A stretch of 64,000 nt of DNA from a virus (IMGVR_UViG_3300021963_008171:10995-74994), one strand, 5' to 3'. Shown: positions 6,006-62,838, counted from the first letter of the stretch. A program made the numbers and translations. The notes: generated from the letters alone by a model not told the origin.

Positions 6006-6006
6006 T

Positions 6007-40653: not shown

Positions 40654-41031
40654 CTATCCTTTGCTTACGTCATATTTTATAGACCCATCAGCTGACATAT
40701 GACCAGTTCTTATAGCAGTACCGCTTATTGCTCCTACCTCTGCTGGCGGTTCATGGTAAATCACATCATATCCTACTCCCCTTCCATAATTAACACTTTC
40801 TATATCAGGTATAACGGAGATAAAAAGTCTCCCGGTTTGTAAATAATCGTTCAGTTCGATTTTTAATTCATCAAAAACTTGCAATGCAGATTTTGGATTG
40901 TTTTCGTCTTGCGGTACGTCTCTAATTGCGACCCAGACATTCTTCCCCTGACTAAATTGCTGATCTATTAACCACTGGTGTCCTTTGTGCCAGTTTTGCC
41001 ATCTTCCGATGTATAACGCGTATTTTTTCAT
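40654..41031 (-). CDS. minimal HxGH-type nucleotidyltransferase (cytidylyltransferase-like superfamily)
   Basis: YIGRWQNWHKGHQWLI carries the (H/T)xGH motif, and ISGTAIR matches the ISxTxxR motif. 125 aa. 4-nt overlap with the APS-kinase gene. Confidence 0.65.
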   Translation of the reverse strand: MKKYALYIGRWQNWHKGHQWLIDQQFSQGKNVWVAIRDVPQDENNPKSALQVFDELKIELNDYLQTGRLFISVIPDIESVNYGRGVGYDVIYHEPPAEVGAISGTAIRTGHMSADGSIKYDVSKG

Positions 41032-41465
41032 ATAGATTCTAGACCCAAAATACTGATAAGTTCCTCGAACGATTCATTCAGATCATCACCATTTACAAAT
41101 GCCTTATAATTATCAACGGGCAGCTCAAATGCTTGTACATGGAGTTTATCCTTTCCTGAGAAATGCGGCCTATTAAACAGTATCTCAGTGACCTCGTTAT
41201 TCGCTTTTAAATCCTCCCTAATTGCACGATAAGGACAAACCATACTTATCACTACATCATATCCTTTTTGGCTCATAAAACGAGCTATTGTAAAGGATCT
41301 TTCTATGTTTCTAATTCTCCCCGAATATGAATAATCAGTATTTGGAAATATCTCTCTTAAATCGTCGCCGTCTATCCAAATTGTTTTTTCGCCCAATCTT
41401 TCTACGAGCATACTAGACATTTGGGTTTTTCCTGTGCCAGGCTGCCCGATAAACAAATAAATCAT
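41028..41465 (-). CDS. cysC: adenylyl-sulfate (APS) kinase-like
   Basis: IYLFIGQPGTGKTQMSS...IWIDGDDLREIFPNTDYSYSGRIRNIERSFTIARFMSQKGYDVVISMVCPYRAIRE aligns with E. coli CysC LWFTGLSGSGKSTVAG...[53 protein letters not shown]. The lid region appears shortened. Confidence 0.7.
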   Translation of the reverse strand: MIYLFIGQPGTGKTQMSSMLVERLGEKTIWIDGDDLREIFPNTDYSYSGRIRNIERSFTIARFMSQKGYDVVISMVCPYRAIREDLKANNEVTEILFNRPHFSGKDKLHVQAFELPVDNYKAFVNGDDLNESFEELISILGLESI

Positions 41466-41694: not shown

Positions 41695-42918
41695 ATGGTT
41701 TGGAATTACCAAGATACAGTGCTAGTTCATGTGGAACTTTCCAATCTTTGCAATGCTGCTTGTCCCCTTTGCCCAAGATATGTAAACAATTCGTTAAGGG
41801 TCAATCCAGAATTGGACTTGGGCAGCGTTTCTTTTGAGGATTTTAAAAAATGGTTCCCTCTAGAATTTGTACAAAAAAGTAAAGGATGGATATTCTGCGG
41901 TACTAATGGCGACCCCATGATGGCTAGAGACGTGTATGAGATATTAGAATATGTTCTCAGAAATTCGACTGCTAAGGTCCAGGTCAACACTAACGGTTCC
42001 ATAAGAGACGGGGAATTTTGGGAAAAAATAGGATCTTTATTTGCCGAGCCCTGTGAAAATAGCAGATATGTTGTTTTCTCTGTTGATGGACTGGAGGACA
42101 CGAACCACATCTACAGAAGAAACGTGAAATGGGAGAGGGTGATGGAAAATATGAGAGCCTATGCAAAATCAGGATCTACTGGTATTTGGGACTTTCTAAT
42201 ATTCAAGCACAATGAGCATCAGCTAGAGGAGGCTGAGCTTCTCTGCAAAGAAATAGGTCTAGCATTTTCTCCAAAAAGACCCTTTGGGTTTGAAACGGGA
42301 AATCCTGATGAATACCAGGACTTAATGGTTTATGACATGGAAGGAAATTTTTTATACAAGATAGAGCCGGCCAGCGAGGAGTGGAGATTAAATAGATCCA
42401 TGAATAAATTTGAGAGAGGAGAGGAAAAAATATGGATTCCGGGAAAGGGGAAAAGAACAGATGATGAAATCAAAGAAAAGTGGAATGGACTGATCGAGAG
42501 GGATCTTCCTAAATATAAATTCCCGGAAAGATTCAAAGAAAAATCAGTTAGTTGCAAATCTTGCCATCCTATCGGGAAGGAAATTTATGTTGATTGTAAG
42601 GGAAATGTTATGCCTTGCTGCTTTGTTGGAACAATGTACAACAGTGACTTTCAACACCACGAGGCATTACAGATAAAAAAACATTTATGGGACTGGGGAT
42701 TGGATAAAATAAATCTGAATAATCATTCTCTCAAAGATATACTAGATAGCAAATATCTAGATGAGGTTTTTGCCAACCGCTGGGAAGGAGCTAAGGATGA
42801 GGATAAAATGGGATATTGCTTTAACACATGCTCGGTTGATCACATGAAAGATCTTTTTGTCAGAAAGGAAAATCTACCAATTTCTTCAGAAAAATCAGGC
42901 AAAAAAAGTCTTATCTAG
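41695..42918 (+). CDS. radical SAM enzyme with a Cys-rich (SPASM/twitch-like) C-terminal region
   Basis: CxxxCxxC in LSNLCNAACPLCPRY. The C-terminal region has CKSCHP...CKGNVMPCCF...CFNTC. Confidence 0.75.
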   Translation: MVWNYQDTVLVHVELSNLCNAACPLCPRYVNNSLRVNPELDLGSVSFEDFKKWFPLEFVQKSKGWIFCGTNGDPMMARDVYEILEYVLRNSTAKVQVNTNGSIRDGEFWEKIGSLFAEPCENSRYVVFSVDGLEDTNHIYRRNVKWERVMENMRAYAKSGSTGIWDFLIFKHNEHQLEEAELLCKEIGLAFSPKRPFGFETGNPDEYQDLMVYDMEGNFLYKIEPASEEWRLNRSMNKFERGEEKIWIPGKGKRTDDEIKEKWNGLIERDLPKYKFPERFKEKSVSCKSCHPIGKEIYVDCKGNVMPCCFVGTMYNSDFQHHEALQIKKHLWDWGLDKINLNNHSLKDILDSKYLDEVFANRWEGAKDEDKMGYCFNTCSVDHMKDLFVRKENLPISSEKSGKKSLI

Positions 42919-42933
42919 GGACATTTTTTGGGC

Positions 42934-42944
42934 GATATATAAAA
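42934..42944 (+). promoter_or_regulatory. GATATATAAAA motif
   Basis: Ends 1 nt before ATG 42946. Confidence 0.35.
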
Positions 42945-42945
42945 T

Positions 42946-45441
42946 ATGAACGATAAGATAAATTTAGTCTATGACGATTGGCCTCTTGATCAGGAAAGGC
43001 CGAATCCCAATGGAGATAAATATTTTCCAGAAGCAAATGCCTGGATGACTGGTGATGGTCCGATGGAGACTCTTCGATACTGCAATTACGTCAACCGAAG
43101 AATGGAAGATGTCGACAAGTACCAGGAGGAAAATTTCTTTTATGTTGTTTGGCATCGACATTCTCTCTATGACAGATTTTTGTATTTTGACAGACTTCCA
43201 ATAGGTGATGATATGATAGGGGCTTTCCAAAGAAAGCCAAATCTTTATCTTCTTTTAATAAACGATCAAGAGATAGAGCCTATAGAAACTATAAGCAAAC
43301 TTGATCTCGCTCTAGAAAGAAATAATATAGATCCAAGAAAGGTTTTTGTAGTTAACAACAATTCTAGAAATTGGGAATATAAAAAAGAATTGGGGAGTAA
43401 TATTAATGTTCATAGTACGAGGGCAATGCCTCTAGCATTGGCTAAAATTCCCAGAAGTAATTTCGTAGAGAATAAAGAAGGGCATTTTTTCATGTCACAC
43501 AACCATTCTTTAAGAGAAAGCAGATCCGCGTTTGTGTGTCTCTTAAAAAAATATGGACTGATCGATGATTTTGATTGGTCTTATTTGAAGCTCTGGAGAC
43601 TACCTGGTGAGGATTGGATAACTATCTATAGAAGAATATTCAACGATTCCGATATGGAATTCATGATGCCAGAAATAGAATATTTTAATTCTTATGGTAT
43701 TAAGAAAAGCAATTACGAGTCACATTTTCCGTGGCTTGATGAAATGACAACTAATAGTCCTTCTTGGTGGGAAACATTTAATTCACAGCAGTACGAGAAT
43801 ACCTATTTTAATGTAACTGTGGAAACACAATATTTTGGAAGGGACCTTCACATAACAGAAAAGTCATTTAAACCCTTTATCCATCTGCAGTTTCCTATGA
43901 TTCTTGCCTCCAGACATCATATAAAACATATGCGGGAGTATTACGGGTATGATTTTTTCGATGATGTGATTAACCACGATTATGATAACGTCGTAAGTGA
44001 TAGAGATAGAATCTTTAGGTTCATAGAAGAACTAAAAAGAATTCAGGAGAATAAAGAATTCTTTATCGATTTTTATAAAAATAACAAGGAAAGATTTCGG
44101 AGGAATCAAGAAATGGTTTATCAATTCACCAATGAATATGATGCTAGCTATTTCAGGGCATTGACAAAATTTGATCACCCAAAGAAAACCCTTAATCTTG
44201 TTTATGATAATTGGGATACCCAAACTAATCGCCCATTAAGAGGCAATTCTGAAGATCTTTACCTAAGTACATTCCACATGAATGTTGACAGTGTAGTTGG
44301 ATCCTTACAATTTGATAGAAGATTAATCAGAAGATATAGATTGGAAGATGTTCCTAAGATAAAAAATGAGACATTCTTTTATTTTGTCACCTTAATTCCT
44401 GGCATCCTAGCGGAGAATTTAAGATCTGGAAAACTACCAATAAATAGAGATGCTATCAACATGCTCAAGAATTATTCAAACTTTAATGTGATAATAATGA
44501 ATGAGCAGGAAGCAGAAAGAAAAGAAACACTGGTTCTTCTTGATAAATGGTCCAAAGAATCCGGCTTAAATCAGCAACAAATTTGGTTTTCTAATAACAA
44601 CCCAAGACTACAAGAATTCAAAGAGGAAATAGGAACTGATATAAATGTTCATTCGACAGTTAGACTTGCTAATTTCACAGCAAATTCTGTTATACATTCA
44701 GTGGGAAGGGTGGAGTTCAAGTCTGAGAAAGACGGGGAATTTTTCATGTGTCACAATAGAAGGCCAAGACCGCATAGATATGGTTTACTATGCTTGCTTA
44801 AAAAGAGCGGGGTTTTAGATGATGTTGATTGGTCTTTAGTTCAAGGGTTTCAGTTCAAGGGAAATAAGCACCCTGAATCCTTCTTTAGAACAATATTTAA
44901 CGATGAAGATATAGAAAACATGAGAGAAGAAATTGAGTACTTCTCTAACATAGAACAAAAGAAAAGTAGATACGAGGAAGAAAGAACATGGTTCGATGAT
45001 AGGGAAAATGAAAATAATGTTCCTTGGAATGAAACCTATGATAAAAATCAGTTGGAAAATTCATATTTCAATATCACAACAGAAACTGAATTTTCATCAG
45101 ATCTGACACACATATCAGAAAAATCTTTCAAAGCTTTCTGTGCAATGCAGTTTCCCATGATTCTTGCATCTGCTCACCACATCAGAGAAATTAAAAAGAA
45201 ATATGATTTTGATTTTTTTGATGATGTGATCAATCACGATTATGACGACGAAGAGAATCACAGAGACAGACTTTTTAAATTTGTAAAAGAGATAAAAAGA
45301 ATAAACGACAACAAGGAGTTCTTCATAGAATTTTATAAGAACAACAAATTTAGATTCGAGGAAAATCTTAGAAAAATAGAGGAGAAAGTAAAGGATCAAT
45401 CAGATTCTGACTTTTTAAAAAGAATATCTGGTATAATATGA
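42946..45441 (+). CDS. tandem-duplicated two-module enzyme, fucosyltransferase (GT10/GT11)-like C-terminal motif in each half
   Basis: The halves (aa 1-~411 and ~412-831) are colinear. Shared blocks: INLVYDDW/LNLVYDNW, NVHST, FFMSHN/FFMCHN, LCLLKK.G..DD.DWS, and HITEKSFKPFIHLQFPMILASRHH/HISEKSFKAFCAMQFPMILASAHH followed by FFDDVINHDYD. Confidence 0.45.
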   Translation: MNDKINLVYDDWPLDQERPNPNGDKYFPEANAWMTGDGPMETLRYCNYVNRRMEDVDKYQEENFFYVVWHRHSLYDRFLYFDRLPIGDDMIGAFQRKPNLYLLLINDQEIEPIETISKLDLALERNNIDPRKVFVVNNNSRNWEYKKELGSNINVHSTRAMPLALAKIPRSNFVENKEGHFFMSHNHSLRESRSAFVCLLKKYGLIDDFDWSYLKLWRLPGEDWITIYRRIFNDSDMEFMMPEIEYFNSYGIKKSNYESHFPWLDEMTTNSPSWWETFNSQQYENTYFNVTVETQYFGRDLHITEKSFKPFIHLQFPMILASRHHIKHMREYYGYDFFDDVINHDYDNVVSDRDRIFRFIEELKRIQENKEFFIDFYKNNKERFRRNQEMVYQFTNEYDASYFRALTKFDHPKKTLNLVYDNWDTQTNRPLRGNSEDLYLSTFHMNVDSVVGSLQFDRRLIRRYRLEDVPKIKNETFFYFVTLIPGILAENLRSGKLPINRDAINMLKNYSNFNVIIMNEQEAERKETLVLLDKWSKESGLNQQQIWFSNNNPRLQEFKEEIGTDINVHSTVRLANFTANSVIHSVGRVEFKSEKDGEFFMCHNRRPRPHRYGLLCLLKKSGVLDDVDWSLVQGFQFKGNKHPESFFRTIFNDEDIENMREEIEYFSNIEQKKSRYEEERTWFDDRENENNVPWNETYDKNQLENSYFNITTETEFSSDLTHISEKSFKAFCAMQFPMILASAHHIREIKKKYDFDFFDDVINHDYDDEENHRDRLFKFVKEIKRINDNKEFFIEFYKNNKFRFEENLRKIEEKVKDQSDSDFLKRISGII

Positions 45442-47105
45442 AAAAGGTACTAATTACAGGATGCAATGGTTTAGTTGGAAGCTATCTAAGAGATCTTTGT
45501 TTAGATAATGGATGGAAAGTTACTGGTGTAGATAGAAACGCAACAAAGAGAATTACCAGAGATTTTAATTACAAATTTAAAAAACTAGACTTATTAATAG
45601 AACAAAATATAATAGATCTTTTTAAAGATGAAAAATATGATGTAGTATTTAATTGTTTTGGAATTAAAGGATCTCCAGTAAGGGCAAAAAATAATCCTGT
45701 TGATTTTCTGTACCCGTCTTTTAAAATAAACACTGAGATAATAAATCAATGTTATTTAAACGACACGTGGTTGGTTTTTGTTAGCTCTGTTGGTGTTTAT
45801 AGCCCAGCAGAAAAATTCTCAGAAGATGATGTTTGGAAAACACTACCATCAGAATCCGATTGGTTTCCGTCTTGGTCTAAAAGAATGGGAGAATTGCTAT
45901 TGGAATCATATCGGGTTCAATATGGATACAACAAATGGACGATAGTAAGACCAGCAAATATATTTGGTGAATACGACGACTTTAGTGGTAGTGGAACATT
46001 GATATCAACCATGGTAAAAAAGGTCTACGAATCTTCTGGAGAGATTGAAGCATGGGGAGACGGCACACCTATCAGGGATTTTGTTTACGGAAAAGACGTT
46101 GCTTTGTCTTTAATAAAACTTTATGAAGAAGAAATAAACGATATAGTTAATTGCGGGTCAGGAATAGAGGTATCAATAAAAGATGTTGTTGAAGAAATTA
46201 TAAAAGCAAGCGGGAAGGAAATCTCAGTAAAATGGGATTCTTCTAAACCTAATGGAGATCTTAGAAGACTAATGGATACCACAAGACAGGAAATTCACGG
46301 GATAATGCCAAAAACCAATTTTTCCGATGCTATACTTAATGTTTATAAATATTACTCAGGTCTTTTCGAAGAGGAGTTACCAGTAATATCTAAAGACGAT
46401 TTGCTCGTCGAAGGTGCATATGTTGGAAAAATATCTGATTTCCTAGAGGAGGATGAATTAGAGCTTTTCAAAGAAATGATAGAGGATGTTAAAGAGTACT
46501 CCTCCGAAGATATTGAAAATAGACTTTCGTGCAAATATAATTATGACGATATAGTAAATGAATATGACCATAATATTCCACCCAGTAAAGTTGCGGAGAG
46601 AGATGCATTTATTCGAAAGAATAAATATCACGTTTGGCAAAAATGGTGGGATTTTAGGTATCCTAAAGAGTCATATTTCAGCGAGATAGCCACAAAAATA
46701 TTAAAGGATCTTTACCCACAGGCTGCCGCTGCTTTGAATGAGGCTAAGATATCAGGATCTATGGCACTTTTTGAAGATGGACATTTCATAGACATTCACA
46801 ACGATGGAGCTAATGTAGGAAGACTTTGTGTAATTATATTCTATCTCTCCGACCCTTCTGCTCATAATAACGGGGGAGGGGAATTAAGAATAATTACCAG
46901 CACAGGAAAAGAATTTATAATAGATCCAGTTTTTGATAATTTCTGCGTGATGGATTTTGCAAAGAATAACATAAAACATGAAGTAAAGATGGTTAATAAC
47001 GGATTTAAAAGATATACCTATATAAATTTTATATCACTCAAAGATGGGATTTTAGAATCAATTTTCCCGAACGAAATAAAAATAGAAAAGAAAAAAATAA
47101 TATGA
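45438..47105 (+). CDS. fusion protein: NAD(P)-dependent epimerase/reductase (extended SDR) plus C-terminal 2OG-Fe(II) oxygenase-like domain
   Basis: N-terminus VLITGCNGLVGSYL, RPANIFG and WGDGTPIRDFVY. C-terminus IDIHNDGANVGRLCVIIFYLSD...GGGELRI...IKHEV...RYTYINF, giving HxD, a distal His and an Arg. Confidence 0.65.
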   Translation: MKKVLITGCNGLVGSYLRDLCLDNGWKVTGVDRNATKRITRDFNYKFKKLDLLIEQNIIDLFKDEKYDVVFNCFGIKGSPVRAKNNPVDFLYPSFKINTEIINQCYLNDTWLVFVSSVGVYSPAEKFSEDDVWKTLPSESDWFPSWSKRMGELLLESYRVQYGYNKWTIVRPANIFGEYDDFSGSGTLISTMVKKVYESSGEIEAWGDGTPIRDFVYGKDVALSLIKLYEEEINDIVNCGSGIEVSIKDVVEEIIKASGKEISVKWDSSKPNGDLRRLMDTTRQEIHGIMPKTNFSDAILNVYKYYSGLFEEELPVISKDDLLVEGAYVGKISDFLEEDELELFKEMIEDVKEYSSEDIENRLSCKYNYDDIVNEYDHNIPPSKVAERDAFIRKNKYHVWQKWWDFRYPKESYFSEIATKILKDLYPQAAAALNEAKISGSMALFEDGHFIDIHNDGANVGRLCVIIFYLSDPSAHNNGGGELRIITSTGKEFIIDPVFDNFCVMDFAKNNIKHEVKMVNNGFKRYTYINFISLKDGILESIFPNEIKIEKKKII

Positions 47106-48076
47106 TAAACAAGAATTCAAGAATTTTAATTACCGGTGGATCTGGATTGGTTGGACAAAATTTAACTGAAAGACTAGTCAGAGAGGGATATACAGATTTA
47201 AGAGTAAATCTTCATAGAAGAGGAGTTAGAAAGGTTCATGACGGTGTTAATTACACATATCATGATCTACAAACATACGAAGGGTGTAAAATCGCAACAG
47301 TGGACGTTGATGTTGTTTTTCATGCCGCTGCTTCAACCTCAAATGCAGTTGATACTGTAGTAGATCCTTTAGCACACGTTACACCAAATGTTGCTATGAA
47401 TAATTTTCTTATAGATGCAGCTTGGAGGAATAATGTACAGCACTATATTTTCATTTCTTCCAATACCGTTTATCCACCAAAGGGTGATGAGCCTGTGGTA
47501 GAAACAGATTTTCTATTTGATGAACCTTATCCAGTATATTTTCCAGTTGGCTGGATGAAAAGATACGCAGAGGTTCAGTGCGAACTTTACGGAAAATATC
47601 TCCCAAGAAAGATGAAATCAACTGTGATAAGACCAGCCAATTTGTTTGGTCCTCATGATAAGTACGATTTCAATAAATGTCACGTTACCCCAGCAACAAT
47701 AAGAAAGGTAGCAGACAAAATGAACCCGATTCCTGTTTGGGGTGACGGATCGGAATTAAGGGATCTCCTTTTCGTAGAAGATTTTGTAGAAGCTCTACAG
47801 ACGGTAATGGAAAAAGAAACTGAAATGTTCGAGGTGTATAATGTTGGATCTAATAAAGTATATTCAGTTCTTGATGTTCTTGAGAAGATGAAAAAGATTG
47901 CAGACTATGATGCACCGACAGAGTTCATTAGTGGAAAGCCTTCTATGATACCAACTAGAAAAATAGATTCTAATAAAATCAAAGAAAAATTAGGATGGGA
48001 GGCAAAAACCCCCCTAGAAGATGGATTGGCTATAGCTTATAATTGGTATCTTGAGAATAATAAAGAATTCAAATAA
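47102..48076 (+). CDS. GDP-L-fucose synthase (Fcl/GMER)-like NAD(P)-dependent epimerase/reductase
   Basis: [14 protein letters not shown]. By-eye matches to E. coli Fcl: [26 protein letters not shown] vs [64 protein letters not shown] vs GWYHEISLEAGLASTYQWFLEN. Confidence 0.75.
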   Translation: [324 protein letters not shown]

Positions 48077-48077
48077 T

Positions 48078-48983
48078 ATGAAGGGATTGATTTTTGCTGG
48101 TTGTTCTTTTACCTGGGGTCAGGGATTATATTACTATTCGGGATTGAATACTTTAGTCGAGCCTGAACCAGATTGTTATGATGCTAGTCTTATCACAGAT
48201 GCCCATAAAAGATATATGGAAACACTGAGATATCCCAGGATAGTTGCAAATCATTTCAACACGTTTGAGTTGGTGTCTAAGCAAAATGGAGGATCTGAAG
48301 AAAGTTCGATTGATTTTATTAATTCAGCATTTGGAATTGGGGAAAAATTTGGATTTTTAACAGATCAGGAATTTTCTTTTAGCGAAATAGAATATGTTAT
48401 AATACAAACATCCCAACCGAATAGAAATGGATTTTACTTCCAATACGAGGGAGAGGAACATAAATTCTTGATTCACGAAAAATCATCAAAAGGTAAATTT
48501 TACGAATGGCTTATAGAAGAAAGAAAATTAACTATCGATGAGTGGTTTGAAGAGCACAAGGAAACATACATTGAGAAAATAAAAAGATTGATGAAGTTCC
48601 TTGAATCCAATGGAATTAAAACGAAAATACTCTGCTGGGAGAACGATTATTTAAATCTAATCAGATCTGATATTTTTATGTACAACAGATTTATCCCGTT
48701 GGAATACAGAGGGGATCAATTTTCGTCCATAAGAGATTTAATGTCCAAACACTCGCATCTTACCATAAATTCAGATTATGATAACTTTCAGGATCCTCCG
48801 AAGGATCACCATCCATCTAAAGAATGTCACCAGGTTCTAGCAGAATCTGTTATAAAATCTATAGAAAGTGATCTGAAGAATTTAAGCGAAACCCATATTT
48901 TTGATGATCACAGGGAGTTTATGAAAACTCTTCCTTGTCCAGCAAAAGAGCCAATTATAAAAAAGGCTAAAACCCTTATATAG
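48078..48983 (+). CDS. divergent SGNH-like hydrolase
   Basis: ATG 48078 is in frame with track ORF 48051. The N-terminus LIFAGCSFTWGQG has GCS in place of GDS. The C-terminus is PKDHHPSKECHQVLAESV. Confidence 0.45.
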   Translation: MKGLIFAGCSFTWGQGLYYYSGLNTLVEPEPDCYDASLITDAHKRYMETLRYPRIVANHFNTFELVSKQNGGSEESSIDFINSAFGIGEKFGFLTDQEFSFSEIEYVIIQTSQPNRNGFYFQYEGEEHKFLIHEKSSKGKFYEWLIEERKLTIDEWFEEHKETYIEKIKRLMKFLESNGIKTKILCWENDYLNLIRSDIFMYNRFIPLEYRGDQFSSIRDLMSKHSHLTINSDYDNFQDPPKDHHPSKECHQVLAESVIKSIESDLKNLSETHIFDDHREFMKTLPCPAKEPIIKKAKTLI

Positions 48984-50421
48984 GTTTTTCTGGTGGATAT
49001 GGATAAGTACCTGTTTCGAAGTGCGTTATTCTTCCATCGTTAAGATTAACTACTGGAATGGATTGATCAACTTTTATAGCCCCATACCATTCAGCTAATT
49101 CTGGAAAAGTCTCTTTGAAGTTCTTACCCCTTCTACTATCATATTGTACATAGAAGCTTTTGAAATCATGGTGTAGTATCGATTTATCGTCTTCTGTTGT
49201 ATTGTGCCCTTTCTCTACAACCTGTATGTAATCCAATAATCTTTGAACCTGAGCAAATTCTCCAACACTGAATAAATTGGGTGTCATTTTTTCGTTGAAC
49301 CATTTACTCAATTTTGCATGAAGCTCAGCTTTGATTTCATCAGGAAGAACTAATGGTGACATAAATGCCGGCCATCTTAGAATATTAAGATCAACGTTTG
49401 GTTTATTTGCACCATATTTCTTTTTTAGTTCTATCATATCATCCAAGAAATCAGTGATGCTAAATAGACATAAACTGTTGATTGTCATCATTATGGTTAA
49501 AGATCTTAATTTAGCTCTTTCGATTAAGCTAACAAGATTGCTTCTCCATGTTTCGTAAACTAATCCGTCTCTAATATATTCTGCATGTCTTCCATAGGAT
49601 TCGTTGCTAGTATAGATGTCCATTTCTTTAATGTCCATCGTGTGTGACATTGCTATCATCTTCTCTAATGTTTGTTCTGTCATTCCGAGATTTGAATTAA
49701 CAGCAAGTCTTAGATTAGGAGAAGGGTTGGATTTTAATATGTCTATGAAATCCCAAAAATTGTGGCTCAAAGAAGGCTCTCCCCCTGTAATTCTGATCTC
49801 CTCTAATGTTTGAGATAACTCTGGCCACCATTCGAAAAAAGCCTGTACGAATGGATTCCTTTCGTTATACTTTCCAAATATTTCTGACCAAGAACCGTCA
49901 CTTCGGTATGCACCCGCTGAATCTGTTCTCATCTTTTGATATGGACCAAATTGCTGAATTTCCTTTCCCCACGTGGTACTGTATCCTGCATTACAATAGC
50001 TACACGCAAAATTACAAGTTCTATCAAAGCTTATTTCTAATGTCTTTAAAAGAATATCATCTCTGTAATCGGTCTCTTCTATTTTAGCTATGTCTTCCTC
50101 GTTATAGATGATGCTTTTGTAAACCCTGTCAGATACATTGTTTCTCCCTATGTCCTCTATTTTCCAGCAATAAGAGCATTCTGCAGGTCTAATGCCACTA
50201 AGCATCATTTTTCGCATTTGCTTTTTATGCCTTGTGTTGTGAATTGCAGAAGGATTTGTTTTTATTTCTTCCAAGTCTATAGGATGCGGAAGGGGTAAAT
50301 GGCAGGATCCGGTGTATCCATGTCCAAGATGTATACTTGCATTGTACCATTTCGCTGCACAAAAGCTTTTGCTTATCTTATTAAGGTTTTTTTCTCTCCA
50401 GTCTATCAGTTCTTTTGACAT
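48976..50421 (-). CDS. radical SAM enzyme (paralog of 50989..52383)
   Basis: CxxxCxxC in DRTCNFACSYCNAGYS. The N-terminal Cys/His cluster is CAAKWYNASIHLGHGYTGSCHLPLPH...ECSYCWKIED. Confidence 0.75.
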   Translation of the reverse strand: MSKELIDWREKNLNKISKSFCAAKWYNASIHLGHGYTGSCHLPLPHPIDLEEIKTNPSAIHNTRHKKQMRKMMLSGIRPAECSYCWKIEDIGRNNVSDRVYKSIIYNEEDIAKIEETDYRDDILLKTLEISFDRTCNFACSYCNAGYSTTWGKEIQQFGPYQKMRTDSAGAYRSDGSWSEIFGKYNERNPFVQAFFEWWPELSQTLEEIRITGGEPSLSHNFWDFIDILKSNPSPNLRLAVNSNLGMTEQTLEKMIAMSHTMDIKEMDIYTSNESYGRHAEYIRDGLVYETWRSNLVSLIERAKLRSLTIMMTINSLCLFSITDFLDDMIELKKKYGANKPNVDLNILRWPAFMSPLVLPDEIKAELHAKLSKWFNEKMTPNLFSVGEFAQVQRLLDYIQVVEKGHNTTEDDKSILHHDFKSFYVQYDSRRGKNFKETFPELAEWYGAIKVDQSIPVVNLNDGRITHFETGTYPYPPEKPI

Positions 50422-50429
50422 AGTCTAAA

Positions 50430-51011
50430 TTATATTTGGTGTAGAAAATTGCAGTTATCTGTTAGATCGTAGCTTTTTCCGTGGATGAATTCTTCGAATA
50501 CATGCTTACTTATAGTTTCTTCGTCTCTTATTATTTCCAGTTCATGAAGAATTACCTCAAGATAATTGAGATTAAATTCATTTTTCGGGAAATTCCCAGC
50601 TCCAAATATTATATGTGAATTTGTGTCTGCTGCTAATTTGTCGTTTATAAAATAAAGGGTTAATGCATTTCCGTCTATATAAACAGTTATTACACCATTT
50701 CCTTTTGTTACCAACAATTCATATTTTCTGTTTGGCTCCCATTCAAAGTTACAAGAAAGATATTCAGTTTTTCCTTTACCGTCAGTAACAATTAATAGCA
50801 TGCCATATTCCTCCAGATCTATTCCAAGGTAGCTGGGAAGTTTAGCAAATAGAGTTGATTTTCTAGTTATTTCTTTCTCTAGTTCAAAGACTAGCTTAAA
50901 ACTAAAATCCCCTTCATAATCAAATATGTGATTTGCTGGATCTTTTATGAATTTTTGTCCTAATATATTAGGCCACATTATCCAGGGTTCACCCTCTTTT
51001 ATTTTTAACAT
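50430..51011 (-). CDS. LamG/concanavalin-like jelly-roll protein
   Basis: FSFKLVF...RKYELLVTKGNGVITVYIDGNAL...NSHIIFGAGNF...LEVILHELEII fits the Laminin_G_3 pattern. Confidence 0.5.
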   Translation of the reverse strand: MLKIKEGEPWIMWPNILGQKFIKDPANHIFDYEGDFSFKLVFELEKEITRKSTLFAKLPSYLGIDLEEYGMLLIVTDGKGKTEYLSCNFEWEPNRKYELLVTKGNGVITVYIDGNALTLYFINDKLAADTNSHIIFGAGNFPKNEFNLNYLEVILHELEIIRDEETISKHVFEEFIHGKSYDLTDNCNFLHQI

Positions 51012-52383
51012 CTTCGTAGAATTTTTTTAGTTCAGGAAAGGTTTTTATAAAATCTGTACCTCTTCTTTTATCGTGTTCATCAACAAACAATACAAAATCT
51101 TTTCTATTTTTTTCAACGTCGAATCCATCCTCTGATATAGCATAGTCATAGATTCTTTTTATCTTTTGAATCTCAACATCGGAAAATCCATAATTATCGT
51201 GTGTGAATTCAGGTGTTGCGTAATAGAATGCTTTTTGAGCAGCTTTGAATATGAGCTCTTTGTGTTCGTCGTTAAGTATTTTAACCGACTGATGCTCTGG
51301 CCATCTTAGATAGGATGTATCTAGCTGTATGGCAGATATCCAATACCTTTCTTTGTTTTGGTATTTCTTTTTTAGCTGGAATATCTTTTCTATTAACTTA
51401 GAATACCCAAACACCGACATTGCGTTAAACGTTGCCATAACGTTCACTGTGACCTTCGGAAGTTCGGTTAGGATAGTTTCTACATTTTCGAAGAAGTGGT
51501 CAAAATTGAGCCCGAAACGGATGTATTCGGCTTGTTCTTTCCATGCTTCACACGAGGTAAATACTATTAGCTCGTTTACCCTGTTTTCCTCAATTATTTT
51601 TTTACACAATTTCACAAATTTTTCTACCAGATTTTTAGGAACACCAAGATTGGTATTGATTGAAAGATTTAATTTTCTATTAGGTTCCTCGGTTTCTGCT
51701 ATGAATTCTAATAACTTCCACGTGTCTTTTGAAAGAAGTGGTTCACCACCAGTTATTCTAAATGTGTGTAAGTCGTTGTAAAGATCTGGCCACCATTCCC
51801 AAAATGCTTCAACGTATGGATTTTCTTCTGAATGCTTGTATGGTATTTGTCCGGTTTCCCTGGGCCATTTAAGATCATTAAAATTTGTTGATGTTGGATA
51901 TCCCCCATGATTTTCTATTTCTTCCATCCATTTGGAAGAAAACATAGGGCTACAATAGGAGCATTTGAAATTACACGTGTTTGAAAAATTAACCTCAACA
52001 TATTTTGGATTGTAATCTGAGCTCCATCTTAGATTTTTAATTTCGTCCATGTGTGGAAATGACCATGGCTCTGAGCTTTTGAAAACCCTATCAGAAAAAG
52101 ATTCTGAACTATCTTCCACCTTCCAACAATAATTACATTCCTCGGGTCTTTGCCCATTTAACATTTCCCTTCTCACCTTCTTTTTGTGCTTGGTGTTGTG
52201 AAGAGCCGATGGATTATTTTCCAGTTCGCTCAAAGGAATTTTATGTGGAATCGGGTGATGACATGAATGCGTCATTCCATTATGAAGATGCATAGTAACT
52301 TGTGTCCACTTAGCGAGACACATCCCACATCCAGTTGAATTTAATTCTTTTCTTGTTTCCTCAAAAATTCTTTGATCGCTCAT
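50989..52383 (-). CDS. radical SAM enzyme (paralog of 48976..50421)
   Basis: SNTCNFKCSYCSPMFS. The N-terminal cluster is CGMCLAKWTQVTMHLHNGMTHSCHHPIPH...ECNYCWKVED. Confidence 0.75.
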   Translation of the reverse strand: MSDQRIFEETRKELNSTGCGMCLAKWTQVTMHLHNGMTHSCHHPIPHKIPLSELENNPSALHNTKHKKKVRREMLNGQRPEECNYCWKVEDSSESFSDRVFKSSEPWSFPHMDEIKNLRWSSDYNPKYVEVNFSNTCNFKCSYCSPMFSSKWMEEIENHGGYPTSTNFNDLKWPRETGQIPYKHSEENPYVEAFWEWWPDLYNDLHTFRITGGEPLLSKDTWKLLEFIAETEEPNRKLNLSINTNLGVPKNLVEKFVKLCKKIIEENRVNELIVFTSCEAWKEQAEYIRFGLNFDHFFENVETILTELPKVTVNVMATFNAMSVFGYSKLIEKIFQLKKKYQNKERYWISAIQLDTSYLRWPEHQSVKILNDEHKELIFKAAQKAFYYATPEFTHDNYGFSDVEIQKIKRIYDYAISEDGFDVEKNRKDFVLFVDEHDKRRGTDFIKTFPELKKFYEDVKNKRG

Positions 52384-53825
52384 TATGCTTTACAATTTAT
52401 TAAAAGTACGTTATTGCCAAGATCCTTCGCCGTGATTAATTCATATTGCATATTATTAATCCCGTCGCTCTTGTAATCTATGGATCTTCTTTGCATTTCT
52501 GTAACAAATCTTCTTTCGTTTCTGGCTGTTGTTTCTCCCTTAGCCCATTTATTGTTTACTAATCCTTCGTCAACATGTGGCATGCATTCAAAATCTCCTT
52601 CTCTTCTAAATGGTATTGGCATATCAGTAACCGAAAAATCCTTCTTCTCAAATTCCACATTTTTATGATCTGCTCTTACTCCTTTTATTAAATCTGGTAT
52701 TTTTTCTGCTGATATATTTTCAAAATCATAATGCAAGACAGGATCTATTTTCTTTGAATGAAAATCCGATATTTGACTAGCATTATCTACGAATTTATCA
52801 AATATAAGTAATTCTGCTATCTCTCCCCTGAAATTTATAGGATTTCCTTTATCTGCATTGGTTCCTAAATACATCGGACTTTTATCTTCGTAATTGAACA
52901 TACCTCCAAATATGTAAGTGGATTTTTCCTCCTTGATGCCCTTTTCGTTAGATTTTCCAAGCTCGTCATTAAGAAAAAAGTTAAATCTGGACTCAGATTC
53001 TTTATACGAAGTTGTCACCCATGTCCATTCTTCGTCACTTCTTTTGAGCCAATTGTAAAACATAGTTTTGTCCTGGTTGTAAACCATGCTTGTTACTGCT
53101 CTTGAATTATTGAAAGAGATTGAATATGGACAATAGCTTTGCTTTCTAAAAACTGGAAATTCTATAAATTGTTTATCTTCCTCCCCTATTAACCATTCGT
53201 TATACTTTTCATTCTGTTGCTGAGCCCGGAATAAAACCGCTATGGTGTGATCTTTGGTTAACAGGTGATTCATTTCTTTTTTGTGAGGAATCTTTATCCA
53301 TGAATCCTCCCCATTAAAAATTGCAACATTCTTCTGATCGTACTTTTTATACACCCTGCAGTTAGAGTATCCCTCGAAATGAGCACGGAAAAAAAGATCA
53401 TCGTCTTCCATTCCCCAATCCCAATAGTTATTAGAATATCCATTTGTTCTCTCCACCTGCTCCTTGGTAAAAAGAACCACCCCGCCAAAGTATTGTTCGT
53501 AATTTAATTTGTAATCATACTTTGATAGTTTGGTTGCTATATGAACAGGATTTTCTCCTGGGTAGGAATAATCACAGTCTTCTGACACTGGTATCATATC
53601 AATATCGTGCCATGCTATGTAATCACATCCGTCATCAAAAGCAAACTTGGCTGCAATGTTCTTCATTAAACCCCGGTTAAAGAGTTTATCGTCCATTTGA
53701 TTTGCAACATAGAATTTATGTTCTATTCCTCTCTTGTTCAGAAATTCTGTCAAGTGCGGAACTAGTTTTTGTAAATGTTCGTATCTATTTCTGTATGGGA
53801 TACAGATTCCAAGTTTATGTTTCAT
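52383..53825 (-). CDS. GT7 (beta-1,4-galactosyltransferase-like) glycosyltransferase with an inserted LamG-like domain
   Basis: Start ATG 53825, forming an ATGA overlap. IPYRNRYEHL..., FNRGLMKN, HDIDMIPV and YFGGVVLFTKEQVERTNGYSNNYWDWGMEDDDLFFR compare with mammalian B4GalT1 [36 protein letters not shown]. The C-terminal tail SDGINNMQYELI... resumes the GT7 fold after a ~230-aa insert. Confidence 0.8.
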   Translation of the reverse strand: MKHKLGICIPYRNRYEHLQKLVPHLTEFLNKRGIEHKFYVANQMDDKLFNRGLMKNIAAKFAFDDGCDYIAWHDIDMIPVSEDCDYSYPGENPVHIATKLSKYDYKLNYEQYFGGVVLFTKEQVERTNGYSNNYWDWGMEDDDLFFRAHFEGYSNCRVYKKYDQKNVAIFNGEDSWIKIPHKKEMNHLLTKDHTIAVLFRAQQQNEKYNEWLIGEEDKQFIEFPVFRKQSYCPYSISFNNSRAVTSMVYNQDKTMFYNWLKRSDEEWTWVTTSYKESESRFNFFLNDELGKSNEKGIKEEKSTYIFGGMFNYEDKSPMYLGTNADKGNPINFRGEIAELLIFDKFVDNASQISDFHSKKIDPVLHYDFENISAEKIPDLIKGVRADHKNVEFEKKDFSVTDMPIPFRREGDFECMPHVDEGLVNNKWAKGETTARNERRFVTEMQRRSIDYKSDGINNMQYELITAKDLGNNVLLINCKA

Positions 53826-55234
53826 ATGCCTACGTCTACCCAAGTTATATTCTTGTCTTTTTTTATTCCGTGTTCTGTGAATTTGATTCTGAATACACCA
53901 TCATCTTCATCTGATGATGACATACTATAATTTTTAGAAACCTCGTTGATGAACCTCAATTGATTCCATCTAGTTGCCTGATCCTTCCATTTATTTTCAA
54001 AGAATCCATTCTCACTGTGACCAAGTGCTTTGAATAATCCCTTCCTCCTTCTGGGAATTTCTAATTTTTTGTGTGATGGAATTTCCATTTCCCTGATATC
54101 ACAATTGAATATTCTAGCATGATTCCTATTTCCGGATTGATCTACCAATCGATAATTTCTGATACTTTTTGCATTGTAAAGAAGATGTAGCTCGTTAGAA
54201 ATTTTATATTTTCTAAATTTTTGATTTTTAGTTAATTCCTCTACCTCTTCTTTGGATAAACATTTCTTGACAACTGCAAATGAGTCTATCAGTCCTTTAA
54301 ACATATTAGGATCTCCTATTCTGTGTGGATTTCCTGCTCCTAGATAAAACAAATCAACATCATCATATGACCTTAAAGATTCGAATCCCTCAGATTCTCC
54401 TATTAATTCACCATCCTGATAGAATTTGATTTTCTTTTCTCCTAATGATATTGTCACACAAACTGTAGTTTGATAGTTTGTTTTAATATCGGAATTCACG
54501 TAAAAAGCTTTTTCTTCCTTATCGAATGTTACAAAATTGTATCTCTGAAAAGAATTATAAGAAACTGCAGTGTCATATCCAGGTAAGCTAAATGCTGTAA
54601 AAACGTCCGAATCCTTTGTGTGATCACACTCGATATCTTCTGGATAAAAAGAAACAAAAAATGTTAGATCCGTATCAAGATCAAAATTGTTTTTAATCTC
54701 GACGTAAGAATTAATTCCATTAAAATATAATGCTGTGAATTTCTTTTTTGAATTCTTAACAAATCCAAAATCAGTCTCACATCCGTTTCTAACGCATCTT
54801 AATAATAGATCATCGTCTTCGAATCCCCATCCCCAATATCTGTTTGAGTAACCATTTATTCTTCTAAATTCATCTGCTGGAAAAATAGTAACACCACCAA
54901 AATATTGATCGAAAGTCTTTTTTGTATTTCCAGATTCTACCTCCACTATATTTTTAGCCAAGTGAACTGGGAATGGTGAATAACTATAATCAACATCAAC
55001 AGGAAGAAGATCTATGTCATGAAATACCACATAATTACATCCAAGTCTTTTTGCGTATTTGAATCCAATATTTAAGAGCATCCCACGGTTAAATTGCTTA
55101 GCATCATCTTGGTTGATAATGATAAGCTCGAATGAGATCCTTTTCTCGTCAAGATAATTTATTAGATGTCTCTTGAATGCTAGAAGATGCTCCCATCTGT
55201 GCCGATGAGGTACTATTACTCCTAGTTTATTCAT
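53822..55234 (-). CDS. GT7 (beta-1,4-galactosyltransferase-like) glycosyltransferase with an inserted LamG-like domain (paralog)
   Basis: VPHRHRWEHL, FNRGMLLN, HDIDLLPV and YFGGVTIFPADEFRRINGYSNRYWGWGFEDDDLLLR. The insert contains FKGLIDSFAVVKKCLSKEEVEEL. The tail ...NITWVDVGI compares with B4GalT1 ...TQITVDIG. Confidence 0.8.
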   Translation of the reverse strand: MNKLGVIVPHRHRWEHLLAFKRHLINYLDEKRISFELIIINQDDAKQFNRGMLLNIGFKYAKRLGCNYVVFHDIDLLPVDVDYSYSPFPVHLAKNIVEVESGNTKKTFDQYFGGVTIFPADEFRRINGYSNRYWGWGFEDDDLLLRCVRNGCETDFGFVKNSKKKFTALYFNGINSYVEIKNNFDLDTDLTFFVSFYPEDIECDHTKDSDVFTAFSLPGYDTAVSYNSFQRYNFVTFDKEEKAFYVNSDIKTNYQTTVCVTISLGEKKIKFYQDGELIGESEGFESLRSYDDVDLFYLGAGNPHRIGDPNMFKGLIDSFAVVKKCLSKEEVEELTKNQKFRKYKISNELHLLYNAKSIRNYRLVDQSGNRNHARIFNCDIREMEIPSHKKLEIPRRRKGLFKALGHSENGFFENKWKDQATRWNQLRFINEVSKNYSMSSSDEDDGVFRIKFTEHGIKKDKNITWVDVGI

Positions 55235-55430
55235 TCAAATTATCGTTTTCTTCTACGAATTTAGTGTGGAATTCAGACAGATAGAATTGGATTCGGTTGC
55301 TCCATTCGTTTTTGTCTATCTCCTCTACCCAAGCTGTTAGGTCTTCCATACAGTTTGCAATCTTTTCTAATGCTTTAACCTTTCTGATTTCCAGGTCTTG
55401 TGGATTTTCTGTTTTTTTAGATACTGACAT
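55227..55430 (-). CDS. hypothetical small acidic protein
   Basis: 67-codon ATG ORF with an 8-nt overlap onto the downstream gene. Confidence 0.45.
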   Translation of the reverse strand: MSVSKKTENPQDLEIRKVKALEKIANCMEDLTAWVEEIDKNEWSNRIQFYLSEFHTKFVEENDNLNE

Positions 55431-55441
55431 GATTTCTGTTT

Positions 55442-56287
55442 TTATATGGATGTGATAATTTTTATTAATTTTTTCCAGGAAGTGTATCCATCATAGCTGT
55501 TTACATTCTGCTCGAACATAAATGAAGGATCGCTTACGTCTAGTTTATTCTCTATTATAGCATCATACATCTTTTTATATTCGGATGAAAATGCATATTG
55601 TGAATTTACGTCCGCCACAGCCTTGATCCTTTCTAGACACGTTGAATCCCATTTGAAGTGATGAACTTGGACCGAGTATTTTTCAACTGGAGCAATTAAT
55701 GGATGATTCCACCCCTGCCATTTCCATGTTGTATAGCCATCTATCTTTGCATAGTGCTGGCCAGAAGTTATTTGAACGTGCCCCTTTACCAAACAAACTT
55801 TATTTGGGCAGGCATTACTTAGTGGATATCTAAAAAACCCAGCAAGTGGAAATTGAGAAAATATGTCTTTTCCTGATCTTATTCTGGGGAATTCACCATC
55901 TTCTCCTAATCTATCAACAAATCCACCTCTAACCAAATCCCACCCATTTTTTTCGCAGTCGTCTGCTATTCTTCTTGGATGATCGTTGTAAAGATGAAAT
56001 TCATCAATATCAGCAACCATCCACCAATCGTTAGGATGCTCATATTTACAAGAATTATAAATTGTGGTTACCTCTTCCCAGTCAAAACCCCTACTTTTTC
56101 TGGATCCGCAGATTTTTACATTCTTGTGATCCTTTATCTTTTCCTCTACCTGTTTTTTTAAATCTGGATAAAGATCCGATTCATAGACGTAAAACAAAAT
56201 TTCATCCACATTAAATTTACTATAATGTTGAATGAAGTGGGGTATAAGATTAACCCCGTGTCCTATTACTGATACGACTCTAAGCAT
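55442..56287 (-). CDS. glycosyltransferase-like protein (GT2_4/GT92-like, DxDEF motif)
   Basis: DWWMVADIDEFHLY resembles the dW....D.DEf motif of the Glyco_tranf_2_4 and GT92 families. Confidence 0.45.
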   Translation of the reverse strand: MLRVVSVIGHGVNLIPHFIQHYSKFNVDEILFYVYESDLYPDLKKQVEEKIKDHKNVKICGSRKSRGFDWEEVTTIYNSCKYEHPNDWWMVADIDEFHLYNDHPRRIADDCEKNGWDLVRGGFVDRLGEDGEFPRIRSGKDIFSQFPLAGFFRYPLSNACPNKVCLVKGHVQITSGQHYAKIDGYTTWKWQGWNHPLIAPVEKYSVQVHHFKWDSTCLERIKAVADVNSQYAFSSEYKKMYDAIIENKLDVSDPSFMFEQNVNSYDGYTSWKKLIKIITSI

Positions 56288-57011
56288 TTTTTCTTTTTAA
56301 TATAGTTATACCGCTCGAAGCTGGTTTTTCTTTTAATCTTCCATAATTGAATAAATTAAAAATTTCCCATTCATCGTTATTAAAATCCTTTACGAATTGG
56401 GAAGGACCTGAGAAATCATGGAAATCCTTTTTCTGGTCCTCTGTTACTATATAATTTTCTGAAAAGCTTGGATCTGTGTCGTGTATAGCGATTATCCCAT
56501 TCTTTTCCATTATCGTGCTGTACATATTAAAATCCTTGGAAACCCCTTCATATGAATGATCGCCGTCTATAAATAAGAAATCTATTTTGATGTCTTGCAT
56601 TATAAAGAAATCATAGAATGCTTTCTCTGATGTTTCTTTTATAAATCTTGGGTGGAAATTAGATCTATAGAATCCAGATTCGTCCATCATATTGGATTGT
56701 CCCCCGATTCCATTGCAAGGATCTACCACGTAGGTAGCTCCGATATCTCCCCAATTGTAATCGGGATTTCCTTCGAATATTCCCGAACCGTGTAAATCTA
56801 TTCTTGCCTGTGTCATTATCCTAGGAATAAAACCTCCCCCGCTCCCAATACACACGCAATTTTTAGATCTTGTAAACTGGATAAGCGAGTATATTAATAG
56901 TCCATCGCCTAGATCAGAATCCGTTGCACCATGTGACCAGCGGAAAGGTACAGGAATTTCCCCGTCGTTTGTTATCTTTTCCCTGATATAATCTAAATTC
57001 AATACCATCAT
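56280..57011 (-). CDS. class I SAM-dependent methyltransferase (Methyltransf_24/CmcI-like)
   Basis: Motif I CVCIGSGGGFIP, then FLFIDGDHSYEGVSKDFNMY...GIIAIHD. Confidence 0.6.
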   Translation of the reverse strand: MMVLNLDYIREKITNDGEIPVPFRWSHGATDSDLGDGLLIYSLIQFTRSKNCVCIGSGGGFIPRIMTQARIDLHGSGIFEGNPDYNWGDIGATYVVDPCNGIGGQSNMMDESGFYRSNFHPRFIKETSEKAFYDFFIMQDIKIDFLFIDGDHSYEGVSKDFNMYSTIMEKNGIIAIHDTDPSFSENYIVTEDQKKDFHDFSGPSQFVKDFNNDEWEIFNLFNYGRLKEKPASSGITILKRKNA

Positions 57012-60313: not shown

Positions 60314-60725
60314 GGGGATGACATGGCATTTGATCCGGATGTGGATTTTAATACTACACGCAGAGGTATGGTACTCATCCTCTTTAATCTCGGTACAAAC
60401 AAGTAAACGACGTAGAATTATCTACCATGACTTTCGAAGACGCAATGTCTTTCGTAGGTGCTGATTACGCACTAGCTGCCTAATCACTCCCGCACACATC
60501 GTGGGACTTAAAATAGAATGTGTACCAAGGTGTGATTTCTACCCAAAAAGGAATAAGGTCACGTTCAGAGGACTACCTTAATACAAGTGAACTCGACACA
60601 GTTATTGGTAACGATGTCAAAATAGGAACCATTTATTTTGTTAGGCAAGAAAAACTAGCTAAGCGTGTGAGACGTTAGTATTATTATTTCTTTCGGAGAC
60701 CGGGGTTCGAATCCCCGCATCTCCA
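60314..60725 (+). ncRNA. ssrA: tmRNA (transfer-messenger RNA)
   Basis: 5' GGGGATG pairs with CATCTCC (60718-60724), including a G3:U pair. T-arm CGGGG-TTCGAAT-CCCCG. Discriminator A at 60725. The internal tag frame ends ...GGT GCT GAT TAC GCA CTA GCT GCC TAA (GADYALAA*, stop 60481-60483). Confidence 0.9.
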
Positions 60726-60737
60726 CAAATTTTATAT

Positions 60738-60812
<75 letters not shown>

Positions 60813-62735: not shown

Positions 62736-62794
62736 AGCCATTTTTTCCCTTTCTAAAATAAAATCACCTTCTTTCCTGTTTAATCATATTTCTT

Positions 62795-62806
62795 GAATAT
62801 ATAAAT
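62795..62806 (+). promoter_or_regulatory. GAATATATAAAT motif
   Basis: 32 nt upstream of ATG 62839 of the collagen-like gene. Confidence 0.4.
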
Positions 62807-62838
62807 GAACTCGATAGAGTCAAAATTCAAAGAAATAG

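Follow-up and report, generated by a model that had tools for sequence, protein, structure and literature searches.

What do radical S-adenosylmethionine (radical-SAM) enzymes do among the glycan genes of a phage? The question is raised by positions 41695-52383 of a viral DNA of 64,000 nucleotides (IMGVR_UViG_3300021963_008171:10995-74994, hereafter the window), in which an initial annotation reported three radical-SAM enzymes embedded in a glycan region. The presence of such enzymes inside a glycan cluster is no surprise in itself. Our best reading is that two of them, the paralogs named here TwiA and TwiB, would carry out the tailoring steps of a conserved module with which T4-like aquatic phages build a glycan in the cytoplasm.

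To judge from its genes, the window comes from an uncultured T4-like phage, and its matches in the PHROG database include Srd, the sigma-70 decoy, endonuclease VII and DenV. A megablast search of the glycan island and of the first 25 kb against 50,697 phage records gave no nucleotide match. Pfam scans place the island between 32.7 and 57 kb. It contains epimerase/dehydratases of the short-chain dehydrogenase/reductase (SDR) type, 2-oxoglutarate (2OG) oxygenases, GDSL-like proteins, a sulfotransferase-like protein, a glycosyltransferase family 2 (GT2)-like protein, two glycosyltransferase family 7 (GT7) transferases and a Methyltransf_24 enzyme.

Identification of the radical-SAM enzymes

The three open reading frames (ORFs) of the initial annotation were recovered with exactly the same limits:

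48976-50421, minus strand: TwiA, N_Twi radical-SAM enzyme, 481 aa (NF033640, E=8e-92, 308.4 bits, profile positions 1-398)
50989-52383, minus strand: TwiB, N_Twi radical-SAM enzyme, 464 aa (NF033640, 349.7 bits, profile positions 4-398)
41695-42918, plus strand: radical-SAM enzyme with a C-terminal SPASM/twitch-like domain, 407 aa (Radical_SAM E=2.8e-10, SPASM E=8.8e-4)

All three proteins are above the gathering score of the Pfam family Radical_SAM (PF04055; E=2.8e-10 for the 41695-42918 protein, 3.2e-07 and 8.3e-07 for the two paralogs). Each displays one CX3CX2C motif, as previously noticed: CNAACPLC at residue 19 of the 41695-42918 protein, CNFACSYC at residue 136 of TwiA and CNFKCSYC at residue 137 of TwiB. 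Four such motifs are observed in the window for 0.029 expected (98 called proteins, 1.13% of cysteine), three of the four being in the radical-SAM genes. A CxxxCxxC string is also present in a 58-aa ORF (63802-63978, minus strand).

TwiA and TwiB align from end to end with 35% identity (E=4e-96). Both match NF033640 over the full length of the model and above its curated cut-off of 170 bits, and are assigned as full-length members of this NCBIfam family, named "twitch domain-containing radical SAM protein" (N_Twi_rSAM). Proteins of the same name from Bdellovibrionota are 40-50% identical to them. The only close cultured relative detected by tblastn with TwiB is the Ralstonia phage RsoM2USA, whose homologue is 43% identical and where the neighbouring genes are all annotated as "hypothetical". 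No informative relative was found in the PDB by single-protein or profile sequence search.

The initial annotation had named membership of QueE or NrdG as a result that would contradict it. The radical-SAM proteins reach only 20-24 bits with the NCBIfam model of QueE (cut-off 260) and 29-30 bits with that of NrdG (cut-off 131), and their matches to MoaA and viperin are also far under the cut-offs. These sub-threshold scores, together with a structurally related radical-SAM protein of Vibrio phage KVP40 whose gene adjoins a QueC-like gene, could point to a modification of nucleotides or nucleic acids (DNA hypermodification, or a viperin- or QueE-like reaction) for which the glycan genes would be mere neighbours. 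We hold this to be very improbable, given scores so far below the family cut-offs; moreover, identity with the KVP40 protein is only about 22%, the context of its gene is different, and the synteny and gene fusions described below involve glycosyltransferases and LamG domains, not genes of nucleotide metabolism.

The N-terminal twitch domain

Among 98 TwiB-type sequences, down to 36% identity, the invariant residues include Cys22, Cys41, Cys83 and Cys86 in the N-terminal part, Cys137, Cys141 and Cys144 of the CX3CX2C motif, and GGEP (212-215), a SAM-binding motif of the GGE type. The corresponding cysteines of TwiA are 21, 40, 82 and 85 (N-terminal) and 136, 140 and 143 (radical-SAM cluster). 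The shared N-terminal pattern C..KW...SCH.P.PH...EC.YCW was thus correctly reported for the two paralogs. Its description as an "extra" Cys/His cluster holds for its presence but not for its novelty: it corresponds to the N-terminal twitch domain that defines NF033640.

Divergent paralogs from arrays of related phages match the Pfam SPASM family at residues 4-81, above the threshold and with E-values down to 6.8e-16. The N-terminus of TwiB-type proteins aligns with the N-termini of these paralogs at 98.4% probability (hhalign, E=9.8e-15), with the cysteines in register. The same program found no similarity between the N-terminal domain of TwiB and the C-terminal domain of the SPASM-like enzyme of the window itself, and the link to SPASM is therefore drawn through the divergent paralogs. 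By this path, the N-terminal module of TwiA and TwiB is recognised as a SPASM/twitch Fe-S domain in permuted position. SPASM/twitch domains are described as C-terminal extensions (review PMC9012708). NF033640 is among the few SPASM/twitch lineages carrying the auxiliary-cluster domain at the N-terminus.

The four invariant cysteines are predicted to ligate fully an auxiliary [4Fe-4S] cluster, and we infer from them and from the CX3CX2C motif that the proteins bind Fe-S clusters and cleave SAM. The arrangement resembles that of BtrN, which combines a radical-SAM core with one auxiliary [4Fe-4S] cluster held by four cysteines. The ligand spacing of BtrN, C-x18-C-x43-C-x2-C, resembles the spacing C-x18-C-x41-C-x2-C of TwiB. 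No homology was detected with BtrN, where the twitch domain is C-terminal. BtrN is a dehydrogenase of butirosin biosynthesis that performs a two-electron oxidation of a carbohydrate-like substrate (PMC9012708). According to the same review, an auxiliary cluster with four cysteine ligands, as in BtrN, accompanies two-electron oxidation, whereas an open iron site, as in MoaA, binds the substrate.

Models of the proteins obtained with AlphaFold2 (AF2) are of high confidence (pLDDT of 93.9 for the 41695-42918 protein and of 95.4 for the second AF2 model) and match solved radical-SAM cores, which have the fold of a partial TIM barrel. Their nearest solved structures are SPASM/twitch enzymes, including BlsE which acts on a sugar, and MoaA is among the top neighbours. 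The best Foldseek matches of the 41695-42918 protein are BlsE, SkfB, SuiB and anSME (TM-scores of 0.43-0.45 on the query). In the case of TwiB, only about 216 of the 464 residues align with solved SPASM/twitch structures, at 17-19% identity. These matches place the enzymes in the SPASM/twitch subgroup and assign no reaction, because the substrates of BlsE (a sugar nucleoside), SkfB (a peptide) and anSME (a protein) differ.

A conserved module of glycan genes

The TwiB and TwiA pair closes a minus-strand operon with the order MT24, GT2_4, 67-aa ORF, GT7-LamG, GT7, TwiB, LamG, TwiA. The other genes of this operon are as follows:

56280-57011, minus strand: MT24, SAM methyltransferase of the Methyltransf_24 type, 243 aa, first gene of the module (Pfam matches on homologues)
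55442-56287, minus strand: GT2-like protein (Glyco_tranf_2_4, GT2_4), 281 aa (Pfam E=4.8e-08)
55227-55430, minus strand: 67-aa ORF (s66), under the usual size cut-off, between the GT2-like gene and GT7-LamG
53822-55234, minus strand: GT7-LamG glycosyltransferase, 470 aa (Glyco_transf_7N E=9.6e-20, 7C E=2e-18, Laminin_G_3 E=1.5e-11)
52383-53843, minus strand: GT7-type glycosyltransferase with a LamG-like C-terminal domain, 486 aa (Glyco_transf_7C E=4.6e-22, 7N E=1.4e-18)
50430-51011, minus strand: small LamG/ConA-like protein, 193 aa, between TwiA and TwiB (weak Pfam matches to Laminin_G_3/TS_C)

The assignment of MT24 is based on the family PF13578, detected on the homologue of locus L001, and on one Methyltransf_24 match (E=3.5e-11) among the ORFs of the window. 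The two GT7 enzymes are 30% identical and their LamG domains match each other at 99.8% in profile comparison. The gene between the two paralogs was initially described as LamG-like. Its Pfam match is under the threshold (E=7.6e-3), and BLASTP searches against GT7-LamG and the domains found in the fusions were of no help; when profiles are compared, however, the protein matches the LamG domain carried by the adjacent GT7 enzyme with a probability of 95.5% (hhalign, E=1.6e-8), in agreement with the first description. We propose this protein as the substrate-recognition partner of the radical-SAM enzymes.

The conservation of the module was determined in the window and in 82 related loci, the set gathered up to that point (80 IMG/VR contigs and two metagenome contigs). 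The genes are present as follows:

N_Twi radical-SAM enzyme: 83 of 83 loci
GT7: 75 of 83 loci
LamG small protein: 71 of 83 loci
GT2_4: 70 of 83 loci
MT24: 67 of 83 loci
67-aa ORF: 62 of 83 loci

The gene order MT24, GT2_4, s66, GT7-LamG, GT7, radical-SAM, LamG, radical-SAM is kept in about 70 of the 82 related loci, and a GT7 gene lies directly upstream of TwiB in most of them. The module varies at its distal end, which contains either further radical-SAM genes, up to nine in a row, or sugar-nucleotide genes (RmlC, UDP-glucose dehydrogenase, split thiamine pyrophosphate (TPP) enzymes, SDRs and g831-like proteins). Nine of the ten extra radical-SAM proteins tested from the arrays of related phages are members of NF033640. 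A long-tail-fibre gene is found just upstream on the same strand in four loci (L009, L013, L019 and L025).

Natural fusions join the same partners. Two LamG-like domains accompany N_Twi in a single protein of 931-933 aa in L076-L081 (8615-11416), where the LamG domain matches that of the GT7 enzyme at 97.8% (E=6.8e-13). One LamG domain is fused to N_Twi in P0363 (698 aa), and a GT7C/GT2-like transferase in P0400 (885 aa); in P0361 (1203 aa) N_Twi is fused to itself in three copies. The initial proposal of an unusual chemistry on a glycan or glycopeptide is strengthened by the synteny with GT7 in about 70 of 82 viral loci and by the fusions of N_Twi with transferases and LamG domains.

The family is large and abundant, and is genetically tied to glycosyltransferases and lectin-like domains in abundant T4-like phages of aquatic environments. 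More than 7,381 homologues of TwiB were detected in metagenome proteins (E<=1e-10). With the stricter limit of E<=1e-30, clustering at 50% identity gives 487 clusters, and the family is present on at least 269 IMG/VR contigs. Contigs of metagenome-assembled genomes (MAGs) labelled Pelagibacter/Pelagibacterales carry the module with 55-57% identity.

The position of the module differs in the window. In relatives, f9, f10, DUF6734 and MT24 are contiguous on one strand. Here, f9 (30824-31375) and DUF6734 (31862-32764) occupy the plus strand; the MT24-to-radical-SAM module runs in the opposite direction at a distance of about 24 kb, separated from them by additional glycan genes. This shift suggests an inversion or an insertion in this phage.

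None of the 27 island proteins (32745-57899) has a hydrophobic segment resembling a transmembrane helix, and no flippase, polymerase or polyprenyl-phosphate transferase was detected by the domain scans run on most of the 27 island ORFs. Therefore, the glycan is probably assembled on the cytoplasmic side.

The 67-aa ORF, whose stop overlaps the start codon of GT7-LamG, has matches by tblastn in 73 of the 82 loci. It displays a conserved core LE.RK.KALEKIA.....L..WFE..DK..W..R.Q.YL.E, helical-looking from its sequence, and variable charged tails. From its alignment, a role as precursor of a ribosomally synthesised and post-translationally modified peptide (RiPP) was judged unlikely.

Cellular homologues of N_Twi belong mostly to Bdellovibrionota (40-46% identity) and are often in tandem arrays; on three MAG contigs of these predatory bacteria (L142, L160 and L115) the arrays contain about five to eight N_Twi genes. 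Some bacterial copies show, by eye, an N-terminal extension with GGEP and without CX3CX2C. In Bacteriovoracaceae, an N_Twi gene lies beside another radical-SAM gene, an M16 peptidase, a SPASM radical-SAM gene, GT4 transferases and an ABC-2 exporter; the last two neighbours would accord with a role in glycan synthesis. Whereas the phage members of NF033640 occur in the GT7/LamG module, this module is absent from the bacterial loci examined, and no homologues of F1 and F5, two families that neighbour the bacterial genes, are found in the phage loci.

These bacterial neighbourhoods bear on the possibility that, like RiPP maturases or anSME, the N_Twi enzymes cross-link, epimerise or oxidise amino-acid residues within a peptide or protein. 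Candidate targets would be the 67-aa protein, the LamG protein and a structural protein of the phage, and the targeted polypeptide would also be decorated by the glycosyltransferases. Such a role would agree with the M16 peptidase, SPASM radical-SAM and ABC transporter genes of the bacterial loci, with the place of SkfB, anSME and SuiB among the best structural matches, and with the peptide substrates of most SPASM/twitch enzymes characterised so far (review PMC9012708). It would also be consistent with the presence in the module of the conserved 67-aa ORF and its variable tails, with the solubility of all island proteins and with the tail-fibre genes next to the module in relatives. However, the 67-aa protein contains no cysteine and no repeat-like core, and its strongly conserved body would be atypical for a precursor peptide; no RiPP recognition element was found in the Pfam and NCBIfam domain scans; the fusion partners of N_Twi are glycosyltransferase and lectin-like domains, and sugar-nucleotide enzymes fill the variable part of the module. 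We therefore regard a protein or peptide substrate as rather unlikely.

Proposed function of the N_Twi enzymes

We tentatively favour, with less than even confidence, a scheme in which a glycan assembled by the GT7 enzymes in the cytoplasm undergoes radical tailoring guided by LamG, probably a two-electron oxidation. In this scheme, the SDR enzymes (in relatives also RmlC, UDP-sugar dehydrogenase and TPP enzymes) would supply activated sugars, which the GT2-like enzyme and the two LamG-bearing GT7 transferases would join to an acceptor, and the methyltransferase would add methyl groups. The LamG module, free here and fused in some relatives, would bring the N_Twi enzymes to the same glycoconjugate. 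N_Twi would cleave SAM at the [4Fe-4S] cluster of the CX3CX2C motif and abstract a hydrogen from a C-H of a sugar. The electron of the substrate radical would then pass to the auxiliary [4Fe-4S] cluster ligated by the four cysteines of the N-terminal twitch domain. The net outcome could be a two-electron oxidation of an alcohol to a ketone, as in BtrN, or another radical rearrangement; from the ketone, nearby reductases could produce a deoxy sugar or an epimer. The final chemistry of the glycan would depend on how many radical-SAM paralogs a phage has (one to nine). The leading candidates for the acceptor are a phage structural protein and a lipid-linked host glycan facing the cytoplasm, because the machinery is soluble and often located beside tail-fibre genes.

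Several points weigh against this tailoring scheme. No function, structure or paper was found for NF033640 in the literature (searched by family name, accession and N-terminal twitch enzymes) or in the PDB. LamG domains bind proteins as well as sugars. The M16 peptidase and SPASM radical-SAM genes of Bacteriovoracaceae form a RiPP-like combination. The 98 TwiB-type sequences contain no further conserved cysteine beyond the cluster ligands; the lack of a conserved non-ligand cysteine as hydrogen donor argues against the known cysteine-dependent epimerase mechanism. Finally, TwiB has many invariant basic residues (Lys67, Lys68, Arg71, Arg99, Arg209, Arg289, Arg360, Arg410, Arg440 and Arg441) that would also suit a nucleotide-sugar substrate.

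The last point leads to the alternative that the substrates of the radical-SAM enzymes are soluble nucleotide sugars, as nucleotide-linked compounds are for DesII, BlsE or MoaA, and that unusual donors for GT7 are made in this way ahead of glycosyl transfer. A diphosphate could be bound by the invariant basic residues, the top structural neighbours include MoaA and BlsE, which decarboxylates a sugar nucleoside, SDR, RmlC and dehydrogenase genes are interleaved with the radical-SAM arrays, and the third radical-SAM gene heads an operon with two SDR genes. We nevertheless consider it unlikely: a macromolecular substrate would agree better with the LamG domain, free or fused, and with the transferase fusion, arrays of up to nine paralogs exceed what any known nucleotide-sugar pathway uses, and four cysteine ligands would leave no open iron for a substrate binding of the MoaA type.

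A bolder form of the tailoring scheme, which seems doubtful to us, would make the N_Twi enzymes a new class of polymer-level glycan editors docked by LamG on a virion protein glycosylated by GT7, perhaps the tail fibre, where one to nine paralogs oxidise, epimerise or cross-link individual sugars. If true, this would produce a hypervariable glycan coat tuning host recognition or evasion, and would represent the first radical-SAM chemistry in viral protein glycosylation. More generally, if the enzymes edit glycans, radical chemistry would be added to viral glycobiology, new catalysts would become available for the modification of carbohydrates, and the hypervariable host-recognition islands of pelagimyophage-like phages would be in part explained. 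The module and its natural fusions constitute a defined, clonable system in which the proposed function can be tested.

The third radical-SAM enzyme and the plus-strand operon

The 41695-42918 enzyme is the first gene of a sugar operon on the plus strand, convergent with the preceding one, which continues as follows:

42946-45441, plus strand: g831, 831 aa, with two halves homologous to each other (41% identical), unmatched in Pfam and the PDB
45438-47105, plus strand: NAD-dependent epimerase/dehydratase (SDR) fused to a 2OG-Fe(II) oxygenase (Epimerase E=2.4e-38, 2OG-FeII_Oxy_3 E=1e-06)
47102-48076, plus strand: NAD-dependent sugar epimerase/dehydratase (SDR) (Epimerase E=4.5e-41, GDP_Man_Dehyd E=6.2e-24)
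48051-48983, plus strand: g310, 310-aa protein, no Pfam match, homologues in 19 loci

The enzyme matches NF033640 only in its core (49.5 bits, under the cut-off of 170) and is not a member of this family; it is assigned to a lineage separate from TwiA and TwiB. Its C-terminus was initially described as cysteine-rich and SPASM/twitch-like. The score with SPASM (PF13186) is near the threshold (20.0 bits for a gathering score of 21.5), and an alignment of 100 homologues reveals, besides the invariant Cys19, Cys23 and Cys26, five invariant C-terminal cysteines (Cys287, Cys308, Cys309, Cys375 and Cys379), which bears out this description. The SPASM domain has a seven-cysteine motif (CX9-15GX4C, gap, CX2CX5CX3C, gap, C) and two auxiliary clusters. 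The five cysteines observed would fit one cluster, as in a twitch domain, or a divergent SPASM domain.

Radical-SAM enzymes of this type accompany the module in only a few related loci. Its substrate is probably a sugar or a sugar nucleotide, on which the enzyme would carry out a radical step of its own. On other phage-like contigs (L166-L168, ENA, 4413-8254), its homologues form tandem arrays of three genes between large unannotated proteins.

In 43 loci, the variable part of the module contains half-size homologues of g831, interleaved with radical-SAM and SDR genes. The motif "...TE...SEK..KP" of g831, seen by eye, may recall fucosyltransferase-like enzymes. The end of g310 overlaps that of TwiA by 8 bases; from its N-terminal motif GCSFTWG, noticed by eye, g310 is possibly SGNH-like.

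Comparison with known systems

Glycosylation of virion proteins, encoded by viruses and carried out in the cytoplasm, occurs for the capsid of the chlorovirus PBCV-1, the fibrils of mimivirus and the capsids of mycobacteriophages. The island resembles these systems by its soluble virus-encoded transferases, its sugar-nucleotide enzymes and its sugar methyltransferases, with no host membrane machinery. To our knowledge, no radical-SAM enzyme has been reported in any of the three.

Pelagimyophages and cyanomyophages possess a host recognition cluster, with which the module can also be compared: in relatives of this phage the module is preceded by tail-fibre genes, but no fibre gene was detected beside it in the window. 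Radical-SAM cassettes in the pelagimyophage cluster are mentioned in one sentence, which gives no family, architecture or function (Zaragoza-Solas et al. 2020, PMC7029224). NF033640 as a named family and radical-SAM enzymes in pelagimyophage-like islands are thus already known. The permuted twitch architecture in a phage glycan context, the seven-gene module, the partnership with LamG and the transferase fusions were not found in the searchable literature.

Additional features of the window

An adenylylsulfate (APS)-kinase match and a cytidylyltransferase match were obtained among the ORFs of the window by a Pfam scan that gives no position. The APS kinase was placed at 41028-41465 (minus strand) by eye only, from a P-loop GQPGTGKT, and the protein encoded at 32745-33380 (minus strand) is weakly sulfotransferase-like. 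These genes could form a sulfation set, a hint that the glycan may be sulfated.

Scans for the T4 late promoter TATAAATA and for sigma-70 promoters and terminators gave counts at or below chance.

A TROVE/Ro60-like RNA-binding protein (26845-28470, plus strand) is 50.5% identical to gp540 of Bacillus phage G; no Y-RNA-like gene was detected anywhere in the window with Rfam at gathering thresholds. A full-length tmRNA gene is located at 60314-60728 (plus strand; Rfam RF00023, 80.4 bits, E=1.4e-29), directly upstream of a tRNA-Met (60738-60812); ARAGORN called the tRNA-Met only. The region 62001-64000 has a G+C content of 0.458, compared to about 0.35 in the rest of the window, and a PAP2 phosphatase-like gene lies at 62043-62735.

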